Assembly: GCA_003009755.1 (NCBI GenBank)
Contig: PXUB01000022.1
Location: 1 to 64,000 of the forward strand
Length of the DNA stretch: 64,000 bases
Reading direction: 5' to 3'
From: Thermoplasmatales archaeon SW_10_69_26
Lineage (GTDB): Archaea > Thermoplasmatota > SW-10-69-26
Shown: positions 44,017-50,716 of the stretch, in pieces
Layout: each line of letters opens with the position of its first letter
Numbering within the stretch: the stretch's first letter is position 1
The notes under the pieces: generated by a model
The model's database searches: none
Seen by the model: only the letters and a program-made list of their open reading frames with translations
Told to the model about the DNA's origin: nothing
Position numbers and translations under genes: made by a program

Positions 44017-44964
44017 ATGAGCCAAGAAGAGCAACCCGCTGACATGGACGACGTCGAGGAGATCAACGAGTGCCCGGAATGCGGATCCGAGCACCTCACC
44101 CAGGACTACGAGCGAGGTGAGCTGATCTGCGAGACGTGTGGCCTCGTCCTCGACGAGACGTACATCGACCAAGGGCCCGAGTGGCGGGCCTTCGACGCCG
44201 AGCAGCGGGAGAAACGCGCACGCGTCGGTGCGCCGATGACGTACACGATCCACGACAAGGGCCTGTCGACCGAGATCGGCTGGCGTAACAAGGACTCCTA
44301 CGGGAAGAACATCCCCACGAAGTCCCGCGCCCAGCTGTACCGGCTGCGTAAGTGGCAACGCCGCATCCGCGTCTCCAACGCCACCGAGCGCAACCTCGCC
44401 TTCGCTCTGTCCGAGCTGGACCGCATGGCCTCGCGGATGGGGCTCCCGCGCAACGTGCGCGAGACCGCCGCGATGATCTACCGCCGCGCCGTCCAGAAGA
44501 ACCTGATCCGCGGCCGCTCGATCGAGGGCGTCGCCGCCGCGAGCCTGTACGCTGCCTGCCGGCAGTGCAACGTGCCGCGCACCCTCGACGAGATCGCCGA
44601 GGCCTCGCGCGTCTCGCGCAAGGAGATCGGCCGCACCTACCGGTTCATCGCCCGCGAGCTCAAGCTCAAGCTGTTGCCCACGAGCCCGACGGACTACATC
44701 CCGCGGTTCTGCAGCGAGCTCAAGCTCTCTGGCGAGATCCAGGCCAAGGCGGTCGAGATCCTCAAGCAGGCGGCCGACAAGGAGCTCACCAGCGGCCGAG
44801 GCCCCACCGGCGTCGCCGCCGCGGCCCTCTACATCGCCTCGATCCTGTGCGGTGAGCGCCGCACGCAGCGCGAGGTCGCCGACGTCGCCGGCGTGACCGA
44901 AGTGACGATTCGGAACCGCTACAAGGAATTGGCTGAGAAGCTGGACATTGACATCATCCTGTAG
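44017..44964 (+). CDS. tfb: Transcription initiation factor IIB
   Basis: [17 protein letters not shown] Zn ribbon, GPEWRAF, HDKGLST, RLRKWQ, two cyclin repeats, [12 protein letters not shown]. Confidence 0.99.
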
Positions 44965-45130
44965 AGGGATCACAGCTTCGAAGCCTCGGCGGTAGCGGTT
45001 CCGAAGAGTACGGGTCCGTCAGGACCCGTACGAATCTGGAGACGACCAGGGTCAGCCGTGTCAAGGTCGTCTCCAGAGTAACCGCTACAAGGAATTGGCT
45101 GAGAAGCTGGACATCGACATCATCCTGTAA
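44914..45130 (+). repeat. 51-bp direct repeat of the tfb 3' end (att-like), copies at 44914-44964 and 45080-45130
   Basis: 49/51 identical. Both differences are synonymous (ATT/ATC, TAG/TAA) and both copies encode [16 protein letters not shown]. Confidence 0.95.
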
Positions 45131-45342
45131 GCGCGACGACGACCGCACGCGCTTGCAGGAGAGTACGAACGGCGCGACGTCCACGAGCGCGCGCCGTTCG
45201 TACGAATCGCCAGCGTCGTTAGCCCGGGAGCTACCGTGCGGGCTCGACGCTGGCGAGAGCCCGAACCGGCACCGGAGGCACGGTTCGGGCGAATCGCGGG
45301 CATCGCTAGCTCGGTCGATACCGTGCGAGATCGATGCTCGCG
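45006..45342 (+). repeat. Array of structurally repeated hairpin pairs (GA-hairpin A-GAA-hairpin B) x3
   Basis: Stems at 45008-45031, 45035-45077, 45163-45203, 45207-45256, 45259-45290 and 45295-45342. CCGTG lies in every B loop. Confidence 0.85.
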
Positions 45343-45537
45343 CCTTGGTTCTCCTCGTCACCGGGCCCGCATCGTCGGCCAACGACGGTTCTCGCAGTGG
45401 TCGGCACCCCTGGCCTGGCGGGCAGTCCCCACCGGGCGGAGTGAGGTCGGGGCCGAGGACGCGTCATCGGTCGGCGATCGGCACCTCCACGTTCCCGGCG
45501 GAGAGAGCTTAACGGTGAGCCCGCCGGCACGGGAACC

Positions 45538-45843
45538 GTGGACATCGCCATCCTCTCGCTTCACGTGGAGATGTGGATCGCCGTAACGGGCAGCATCACG
45601 CTGGCGGTGTTCAGTGGCATCTTCGCCGCGCTCGGTTACGGCGTCCACGAGATCCGTAAGGTCAGGAACCTCATCCACGAACGGAAGATCGAGCACGAGT
45701 CGCTGCGTCGAGAGATCGAAGGCGAGCTGGCCATCCGAGATCTGGAAGAGCCACCGGGCGAGCCGAACGTTGAAGATGGAGGAGCAACAACCGTAGGGGG
45801 AGATGGTCCCCCGCCCGAGGGGGACGACAGCGAGGGTCCCTGA
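45538..45843 (+). CDS. Small single-TM hypothetical protein
   Basis: N-terminal TM, coiled segment and acidic tail. TGATG-coupled to the next ORF. Confidence 0.55.
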   Translation: MDIAILSLHVEMWIAVTGSITLAVFSGIFAALGYGVHEIRKVRNLIHERKIEHESLRREIEGELAIRDLEEPPGEPNVEDGGATTVGGDGPPPEGDDSEGP

Positions 45844-46046
45844 TGGCGTACCGGTTGCAACGAGAGGAGTTGGACCGGGTCCGCGAGCTCCTCGACCAAC
45901 TGCGTCGGCGGGAGGGTTTCGGGGAACGTGAGCGACAGGAGCTGCGGTCGCTCCTTTCCAAACGAGATGCTCGCGTCGAGTCCATGCGTCTCCACACGCT
46001 CGTCCGCTTCGCGAAGAAGCTCCTCGATCAGCGCGAAGCAAGATAG
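45843..46046 (+). CDS. Small basic helical hypothetical protein
   Basis: 67 aa, translationally coupled to the upstream ORF. Confidence 0.5.
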   Translation: MAYRLQREELDRVRELLDQLRRREGFGERERQELRSLLSKRDARVESMRLHTLVRFAKKLLDQREAR

Positions 46047-50279: not shown

Positions 50280-50716
50280 CCGACGGCACCTGCGAGCGTC
50301 AACAGCGTCCCATAGCGACCTTGTCAGGCCGCATCCCCACCGTCCGCGAGTGTCCTTAAAAACCTCATCGTGAGGGTGGCTTCGCGACCTGTGTCACGCG
50401 TGGGTGGTGAAGGCCGCTCTCGCTCGGCGTGACGGCCAAGCGAGCGCTTGCAACGCCTCCGCGTCCGGTGGACGAGGGTGGGGCGATCGAGGGTGTCGGA
50501 CGGGAGAAGATGAAGGGCCACCGGCCGGGGCCTCGAGCCCGGCCGGCGGCGCGTGCCTTGCCTCCTCGCCGTCAGCCGCGATGGACACCCGATGGCGTCC
50601 GACGGCACCGGCGAGACGAACAGCGTCCCATAGCGACCTTCTCAGGCCGCATCCCCACCGTCCGCGAGTGTCCTTAAAAATCTCATCGTGAGAGCGGCTT
50701 CACGTCGCTGTCACGG
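50280..50716. repeat. Tandem non-coding direct repeat, 318-bp period
   Basis: 50301-50374 vs 50619-50692: 74 bp with 2 mismatches, with weaker similarity extending on both sides. Confidence 0.92.

Follow-up and report, generated by a model that had tools for sequence, protein, structure and literature searches.

What is the array of hairpins that stands directly behind tfb, the gene for transcription factor B, in the Thermoplasmatales archaeon SW_10_69_26, and what ties it to the end of that gene? The array (44965-45342) lies in a 64,000-nt stretch of contig PXUB01000022.1, here called the window. A preliminary description had seen in it three modules, each made of GA, a hairpin A, GAA and a second hairpin, next to a duplicated tfb end and an antisense match to that end, and had taken the whole for a mobile or guide-like element that targets and duplicates the tfb end. 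We confirmed the modules, with their stems, linkers and CCGTG motifs, the duplication, the antisense match and the folding. We read the modules as local members of a lineage-specific, non-autonomous and non-coding family of hairpin repeats that resembles repetitive extragenic palindromes (REP) and bacterial interspersed mosaic elements (BIME), is tied to gene ends and is exchanged at the DNA level in an att-like manner; to this reading as a whole we give an even chance.

Hairpin modules as a genome-wide family

The encoded TFB matched relatives at 81-89% identity, and orthologues of tfb were present in 31/31 related genomes. Its last 50 nt recur as a direct repeat (44914-44963 = 45080-45129; 49/50 positions identical, 0 matches in 100 shuffles), copy 1 closing in TAG and copy 2 in TAA. 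Between the copies, 44992-45005 is exactly complementary to 44909-44922 (14 nt, 100%) and 44992-45000 can pair alternatively with 45080-45088 (9 nt); both pairings, like the hairpin over the second stop codon, were found as they had been described. In the modules (Table 1) GA stands ahead of hairpin A and GAA behind it, neighbouring hairpins lie 2-3 nt apart, and CCGTG occurs at 45056, 45234 and 45321. Modules 2 and 3 share 75% identity across 65 nt. Modules 1, 2 and 3 folded on the + strand with z-scores of -6.8, -7.2 and -3.9 (vs 200 shuffles), and the whole stretch 44960-45360 (401 nt) with z = -14.4. The 116-nt insert of the tfb unit encodes nothing. ARAGORN called no tRNA within the window, and no Rfam family reached its gathering score across it; between 44800 and 45600, at E up to 10, only four weak and unrelated microRNA/small-RNA models appeared.

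Copies of the modules were found by blastn and nhmmer on more than 10 other contigs of the source genome (2.82 Mb in 49 contigs, 69% G+C, 95% complete). A pattern in which nothing of hairpin A is fixed but its flanks and four pairs at the foot (GAGNACG-N13-43-CGTNCGAA) matched 57 times, against 4 in the reversed genome that served as control, and a stem of at least 9 bp followed in 35/57 of these matches vs 0/4 in the control. These 57 flank-defined A hairpins are grouped in at least 31 arrays; since arrays break the assembly (N runs, i.e. scaffold gaps, lie inside them at C25:85115-85200, C25:104166 and C41:~56700), the copy numbers are lower bounds. Genome-wide, 2148 perfect hairpins of at least 9 bp were counted, vs 1078 in a codon-block shuffle.

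Structure is conserved across many contigs while sequence varies, as had been proposed for the modules, and the stems do differ in sequence yet pair fully; their sequence is also constrained. Among 41 distinct A hairpins the foot was GNACG/CGTNC, i.e. G-C, a variable pair, mostly A-T, C-G and G-C, followed mostly by AAC/GTT, so that a conserved G-N-A/C-C-G stands at the base of the stem. Positions 2 and 6-9 used three to four Watson-Crick pair types each; the set had been selected for at least 9 pairs, and the pairing percentage itself is therefore no test. Many A loops read GAGC..GCGAG. Hairpin B has the foot TCGCSAGCRTCG (nine loci fit the strict pattern), and its apices, on the strand preceded by GAA or GGA, are mostly ACCGYGCG or a near variant, which accounts for the CCGTG of the preliminary description. 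Hairpin C has the foot TC.GAGAC. A paralogue of module 1 with compensated stem changes lies at C42:29836-29898.

The family is lineage-restricted. A pattern with the GAAC foot was found 19 times in the source genome, once in each of three genomes of the same family and in none of 17 others of the class (controls 0), and under a looser A pattern a second family (G013, G014, G016 and G018) proved to have genuine A-like hairpins too. Copy number differs about tenfold between sister genera. Across 185,579 GTDB species genomes the A-hairpin pattern gave only three chance-level bacterial matches, and in viral contigs none.

The genes used to assess placement were called by ARAGORN and by a crude caller based on GC frame, which gave 1899 ORFs (72% coding). 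Strict A hairpins were mostly intergenic (47/55), and the 45 intergenic ones away from contig edges lay downstream of a co-oriented coding sequence (CDS) or tRNA gene in 39 cases; their downstream neighbours were oriented at random (22 co-oriented vs 21 opposite). Twelve of the 26 non-edge arrays occupied convergent gaps, nine tandem co-oriented, two tandem anti-oriented and three divergent ones, the genome having 283 convergent, 809 tandem and 342 divergent gaps (total 1434). One array, on contig C1, sits 5' of a tRNA-Ser gene in antisense orientation, which shows that the position in a 3' untranslated region (UTR) is not obligatory.

This distribution brings in the main rival explanation, that the arrays are cis elements at the RNA level, transcribed as 3' UTRs or trailers and serving as terminators, blocks to 3'-exonucleases or processing sites, with stems under selection for RNA folding. 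We regard it as unlikely, yet serious. It would account for the co-orientation of 39/45 A hairpins with the upstream gene, the enrichment of arrays in convergent gaps (12/26 vs 283/1434) and their depletion in divergent ones, the conservation of purine linkers and loop motifs on one strand, the occurrence of hairpins overlapping stop codons in relatives too, and the covariation of hairpin arms at tRNA-Gly between genera (see below). However, G-U pairs are no more numerous on the sense strand, and the two strands fold almost equally well. At tfb the minus-strand modules gave z = -6.6, -7.8 and -3.6 and the minimum-energy folds contained 7 G-U pairs in sense and 8 in antisense; over 30 arrays (of 31, one being skipped for N) the totals were 136 sense vs 161 antisense, and the sense strand was the more stable in 18/30. 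The earlier contention that G-T pairs favour folding of the + strand is not supported by these counts. In addition, nearly all stems are perfect Watson-Crick helices, and pairing of the antisense piece with the T-arm would compete with folding of the tRNA. The tenfold difference in copy number between sister genera and the array 5' of tRNA-Ser also speak against an RNA element; that array and the missing G-U strand bias argue for the DNA rather than the RNA level.

Nor do the hairpins look like intrinsic terminators, which require a U-tract right after the hairpin: among 65 gene-end hairpins GAG followed 19, and T-rich letters were never among the common followers. The loops of these 65 hairpins shared no universal motif (ATAGC in 5, CACAG in 6). 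In tRNA trailers, moreover, the T-rich TTCTC precedes the hairpin or array, which again does not suit an RNA-level terminator hairpin. From their placement, arrays just behind genes probably act also as terminator or insulator structures, a plausible secondary role. As a separate observation, many tRNA genes are directly followed by TTCTC(G/A) (e.g. C27:6231, C38:41575, C29:7056 and C9:19072), and in five trailers these letters open a hairpin of the form CTTCTCGACGG..CCGTCGAGAAG; TTCTC(G/A) may be a terminator signal of this lineage.

Table 1. Features of the tfb array and of related or separate loci elsewhere in the source genome (two positions given for a stem are its arms)
Feature	Position	Strand	Basis and remarks
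tfb (transcription factor B) CDS	44017..44964	+	ORF (43954/44017-44964); last 56 nt = arm a of first gene-end hairpin
Copy 1 of 50-nt tfb-end direct repeat (ATT...TAG version)	44914..44963	+	Direct-repeat comparison
166-nt indel unit (copy 1 + a' + A1 + C1)	44914..45079	+	Missing as one exact block in X2 and X4 contigs
a', degenerate inverted copy of tfb end	44965..45005	+	Inverted-repeat comparison, folds
Module 1: GA, hairpin A1 (45008-45031, tetraloop GTCA), GAA, hairpin C1 (45035-45077, TCTGGAGAC foot), GT	45006..45079	+	Stems, folds
Copy 2 of tfb end, TAA stop; version carried by 'empty' allele	45080..45130	+	Repeat comparison; metagenome contigs continuing into 45080-45172
Hairpin X' overlapping second stop codon (TCCTGTAAGCGCG / CGCGCTTGCAGGA)	45123..45160	+	13-nt arms 45123-45135/45148-45160, 92%; fold
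Module 2: GA, hairpin A2 (45163-45203, GTACGAAC foot), GAA, hairpin B2 (45207-45256, apex TACCGTGCG)	45161..45256	+	Stems, folds
Module 3: GA, hairpin A3 (45259-45290, GCCCGAAC foot), GAA, hairpin B3 (45294-45342, apex TACCGTGCG)	45257..45342	+	Stems, folds
Stem, 10 bp	45008-45017/45022-45031		100% complementary
Stem, 13 bp	45035-45047/45065-45077		100% complementary
Stem, 14 bp	45163-45176/45190-45203		100% complementary
Stem, 12 bp	45207-45218/45245-45256		100% complementary
Stem, 10 bp	45259-45268/45281-45290		100% complementary
Tyrosine integrase	C19:59029-60195		Adjoins tRNA-Phe
Tyrosine integrase	C1:121991-122953		Adjoins tRNA-Glu
Tyrosine integrase	C2:33411-34055		Adjoins a tRNA gene
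Loci of separate repeat family (GAAAATTTCC / GGAAATTTTC arms)	C5:5283-5415, C15:15837-16108, C43:27045-27210, C48:16380, C28:1121		

Some further features of the sequence stand apart from the family. Directly downstream of the tfb array, the window holds two small ORFs (45538-46046; 101 and 67 aa, with an ATGA overlap), the first with a hydrophobic N-terminus, and at 50301-50680 two blocks of 22 and 39 nt that are repeated locally in direct orientation 318 nt apart; one of the blocks has the AT-rich TTAAAAA at its end. Elsewhere in the genome, an unrelated AT-rich hairpin repeat stands at gene ends (C12:17705, C32:55430 and C43:41706; arms ATTTTTCTTT / AAAGAAAAAT, loop of ~32 nt), and the separate family of Table 1 combines its arms with runs of TCAAAA(A/C)GGGGGG and is partly tandem (period 91-125 nt).

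Gene-end copies and their variation between strains

Ahead of the first A hairpin of an array there is nearly always a further hairpin, X, which is unique: the end of the gene in front (the stop-codon region of a CDS, or the T-arm/acceptor end of a tRNA) forms its 5' arm, and the perfect complement of that end its 3' arm. In X the last 10-19 nt of the gene (a) pair with a', an inverted copy that lies 10-35 nt farther downstream. Among 57 ARAGORN calls an X-type hairpin followed 24, vs 6 on the 5' side, with a strict A array nearby at only 7/24. When the tRNA set was narrowed to the 46 calls with a T-loop motif, 17 had an antisense copy (at least 10 nt of the last 24 nt) within 700 nt downstream, vs 2 upstream; 17 had an extra direct copy of at least 12 nt downstream, vs 1 upstream; and 22 had an antisense and/or a direct copy. 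The layout of gene end, antisense copy, hairpins and second gene-end copy recurs at many genes other than tfb.

The arrays behind tRNA-Arg (C32), tRNA-Leu (C14) and tRNA-Gly (C3) and the one beside tRNA-Ser (C1) consist of tandem units of 114-134 nt in the order a, spacer, a', then C and A hairpins. All three units at tRNA-Arg share the first 44 nt of a + a' without a difference, and units 2 and 3 share 58 nt, while the C and A stems of the units differ with full compensation. The array at C42:29690-29905 is of the module-1 type, with a tetraloop A hairpin, CGAATC and a TGGAG.. hairpin; its a and a' match its own neighbouring gene, and it ends in another copy of that gene's end.

These copies bear on the claim that the array at tfb is a non-autonomous element whose guide-like antisense segment targets the tfb end, with an end of the IS608 (HUH) type or a hammerhead-like core. 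The antisense core does span the left edge of the duplication, the module at C42 carries an a/a' that matches its own gene, and polymorphism occurs at the level of whole units (see below). An element specific to tfb or carrying a guide is not supported, however: the antisense piece is general, being present at 17/46 tRNA genes. Many genes that lack A/B modules have an a', which simply continues as an inverted copy into letters of the trailer. We know of no way in which such a guide could be rewritten for each target. Neither Y1 transposase, TnpB nor reverse transcriptase was found in the 95%-complete genome, the IS110 copies are not beside arrays, and Rfam gives neither hammerhead nor any other family; a guide-carrying element is largely excluded and in our view very improbable.

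A different origin for the copies, which we hold to be improbable, is that the arrays are a pure mutational by-product: fold-back or template-switch errors at gene ends would create inverted duplications, and palindrome growth and unequal recombination would do the rest, with no dedicated enzyme or function. Template switching yields inverted-triplication products, and the layout a - a' - a would fit them. Where downstream copies are joined, a few letters are shared (GAA/GAG of the linker with GAATCC/GAGTCC of the T-loop), the stems are perfect without strand bias, and derived synonymous changes in tfb raise pairing with a'. One of these is the T at 44910, just upstream of copy 1, which pairs with a' where other contigs have C; the other is AGG AAC AGG in G018 (see below). 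Against a by-product of this kind stand the feet, linkers and loop motifs conserved across many contigs and two families, which a random process would not keep. At tfb, moreover, a' is degenerate whereas the 50-nt copies differ at one base only, so that both cannot stem from a single recent event.

We found the tfb stretch in halite metagenome runs, none of those listed being an RNA run, and aligned the contigs of four of them (X1-X4) to the window. In X1, probably the source sample, a single 196-nt unitig spans 44914-45109 with 0 differences and so holds the repeat, module 1 and the repeat contiguously in real data. This bears on the foldback or chimeric artefact that the preliminary description had named as a possible refutation, here a join of two alleles by the assembler. 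Scaffold gaps in several arrays elsewhere (C25:85115, C41) and the breaking of contigs of the source-like run at the repeat would fit an artefact; the X1 unitig, the independent runs of another study that cover the flanks and show an alternative allele, and the spread of the family over many contigs and into other genomes do not. For the duplication itself an artefact is excluded, and we consider it exceedingly improbable.

The alternative allele comes from X2 and X4, both from the other study, where one contig each joins 44913 to 45080, skipping exactly 166 nt (35 nt fit either side), and continues into the copy-2 version with ATC, TAA and hairpin X'. The precision of the skip indicates that units are gained or lost as precise blocks between direct repeats, and the proposed link to the tfb-end duplication is thus both real and polymorphic. 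Contigs of X2, X3 and X4 ceased to match after 45172, a point inside A2 directly beyond the conserved foot; strains appear to differ in the variable tops of the hairpins. Mobility, which the preliminary description had suggested, stands in the loose sense of unit gain and loss and lineage-specific expansion; the way in which units move is what we infer.

Most relatives have no array at tfb. In G016 and G018, of another family, tfb is followed 100-230 nt on by a second copy of its end, and an antisense piece and a GAG-hairpin lie in the interval. The coding copy of G018 reads AGG AAC AGG, vs CGC AAC CGC in its downstream copy and in all relatives, and the antisense piece matches the coding copy. 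Among 74 distant metagenome tfb loci (GC 32-68%) neither duplication nor antisense match exceeded chance (direct match of at least 12 nt in 2/74, longest 13 nt). At tRNA-Gly(ccc), G003 has the same X-then-A layout as the source, with a compensated a/a' change (A/T in the source, G/C in G003) and a wholly different A hairpin, and G010 has similar features; a' was clear at 3/15 of the relatives' tRNA-Gly loci.

Recombinase candidates and the proposed exchange

Searches for partner genes covered the 95%-complete genome. Y1/HUH transposase (PF01797) gave 0 matches, while the positive control was detected in 6/14 known genomes; TnpB (PF07282) gave 0 matches among 24 scored candidates; and no reverse transcriptase was found. 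IS110 gave three matches (C3:88341, C2:62978 and C41:8005), two full copies and one partial; the full copies both stand at the end of a contig, with no A/B/C array next to them. These two full IS110-family transposase genes (C3:88125-89414 and C2:62306-63478) each have a short hairpin rich in G+C (GCGCGGCCCCGATTCGCACGGGGCCGCGC) in front.

Three tyrosine integrase genes (PF00589) were detected, all abutting tRNA genes. On contig C19 tRNA-Phe and its integrase are followed 13.4 kb on by two copies of the tRNA-Phe end (72370 and 72725) within a typical array, which lies on the chromosomal side of the repeat; the 13.4-kb segment (C19:58919-72740) looks like an integrated element. On contig C1 the 3' end of tRNA-Glu(ctc) has four copies downstream of the tRNA and integrase genes (114569, 114467, 114140 and 107702; C1:107700-123010) with short remnants between them, which suggests accretion of integrated elements, and the end repeats at both tRNA genes look like att copies that flank such elements. 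The X and A hairpins of tRNA-Gly(ccc) recur ~4.5 kb on and bracket an integrase gene. Integrases at tRNA genes with distant copies of the tRNA end indicate that repeated gene ends mark site-specific integration, at least at tRNA genes.

An array opens with hairpin X and goes on with alternating A hairpins (flanked by GA and GAA) and B or C hairpins, often with more direct gene-end copies. In the exchange that we favour, recombination would take place at the duplicated gene ends as it does at att sites. Between these copies, units made of a, a', A and B/C (114-166 nt) would be inserted, excised, duplicated and swapped, the agent being either the tyrosine integrases that target gene 3' ends in this genome or recombination between short direct repeats. 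For one archaeal integrase, recombination on short identical segments has been reported (PMC8371274). Stems may be kept perfect while their sequence drifts by templated repair from one arm to the other. Such arm-to-arm correction is a process from the quasipalindrome literature.

Several points weigh against this favoured exchange. The tfb unit is tied to no enzyme: no integrase is linked to tfb in the source, and none was found on the contigs with tfb-end copies in five relatives (G002, G003, G016, G017 and G018). For a tyrosine recombinase, 166 bp would make a very small double-stranded circle. Of the nucleotides that pair with the perfect antisense core, 5 are outside the 50-nt repeat, which fits local copying better than an a' borne by the element. 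An RNA element, too, would be expected to show the strong co-orientation with upstream genes and to have loop motifs specific to one strand (ACCGYGCG in B hairpins, GAGC..GCGAG in many A hairpins), and the covariation of X at tRNA-Gly(ccc) between two genera could reflect selection for pairing and not mere repair. As to method, the family was searched by IUPAC patterns with reversed-sequence controls in place of a covariance model, as MAFFT alignments looked unreliable (loops of 4-30 nt), and the placement counts share the crudeness of the gene calls.

If the favoured reading is right, this lineage has a REP-like repeat system that does without its usual RAYT partner, with arrays seeded by inverted gene-end copies and whole units changing between strains. 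It would offer a natural system for the origin and spread of palindromic repeats in archaea, for gene ends, including that of a basal transcription factor, as recombination sites, and for asking whether hairpin pairing drives synonymous change in coding sequence. In practice, arrays of this kind interrupt assemblies, and a genome scan can mistake them for structured RNAs.

Comparison with known systems

The parallels first drawn for the modules were with the hammerhead ribozyme and the ends of IS200/IS605 elements such as IS608. They share with the hammerhead the GA before and the GAA after a hairpin, and with the insertion sequences the position of hairpins at an element end. Unlike the hammerhead, however, they match no Rfam family, and the CUGANGA core is absent from modules 2 and 3 and imperfect in module 1; unlike IS200/IS605, they have neither TnpA nor TnpB in the 95%-complete genome, and the HUH parallel is not supported. 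An IS110 bridge-RNA element would have its transposase next to the arrays, whereas the full IS110 copies stand at contig ends.

Integron attC and CTX phage attP are folded single-strand recombination sites in which structure is conserved, sequence varies and the foot is conserved. The A foot (..CGAAC / GTTCG..) is loosely like RYYYAAC / GTTRRRY, and the arrays, like these sites, have a hairpin in which a duplex copy of the target is formed anew. They differ from attC in that their hairpins stand 2-3 nt apart with no cassette ORFs between, their stems are perfect and lack extrahelical bases, and no gene of the IntI type was identified, a statement limited to the three PF00589 genes by tRNAs since the IntI-specific domain was not searched. 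A single-stranded intermediate in the arrays is pure conjecture. We can imagine, as a decidedly improbable extension, that a class of halophilic archaea hosts the units as enzyme-less mini-cassettes (~120-170 nt, three hairpins) which carry the end of the target gene and its complement: the folded single strand would rebuild a duplex att site, a recombinase of the host or of the integrase type would splice the cassettes into and out of gene 3' ends, and hairpin tops would be exchanged between loci like cassettes. Such units would be an archaeal counterpart of attC and CTX attP whose site copies its target.

Also comparable is the accretion of integrated elements and their remnants at tRNA att sites by archaeal tyrosine integrases. 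In both, direct 3'-end repeats flank an insert and leave the gene intact, and presence/absence polymorphism is precise (a 50-nt repeat at 49/50, an exact 166-nt skip); in this genome the integrases themselves adjoin tRNA genes whose end copies are found at a distance of 8-13 kb. Archaea are known to have tandem integrations at a single locus (PMC8371274). The arrays differ in having units of only 114-166 nt that hold no integrase and are linked to no recombinase, each unit carrying an inverted copy of the att-like segment, and the target at tfb is a protein-coding gene.

The known system that the arrays resemble most in kind is REP/BIME (REPINs). REP palindromes are defined by a conserved tetranucleotide, GTAG or CGTC, at one of their ends (PMC3733652), whereas the arrays have the foot GNACG with GA..GAA flanks and lack both tags. 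They also differ in that no RAYT/Y1 gene (PF01797) was found in this genome, their units run head to tail where REP units alternate, and they open with a hairpin templated on the end of the neighbouring gene, of which they hold additional copies. Arrays that take gene ends as template in this way are not described in the titles and passages on REP and archaeal hairpins, palindromes downstream of tRNA genes and haloarchaeal termination that we consulted. For archaea, REP-like palindromes have been predicted too, and more often where the genome is rich in G+C (PMC12306157). With REP/BIME the arrays share their nature as short, G+C-rich, non-coding extragenic palindromes in tens of copies, which cluster just 3' of genes, are rare between divergent genes and vary among related genomes.

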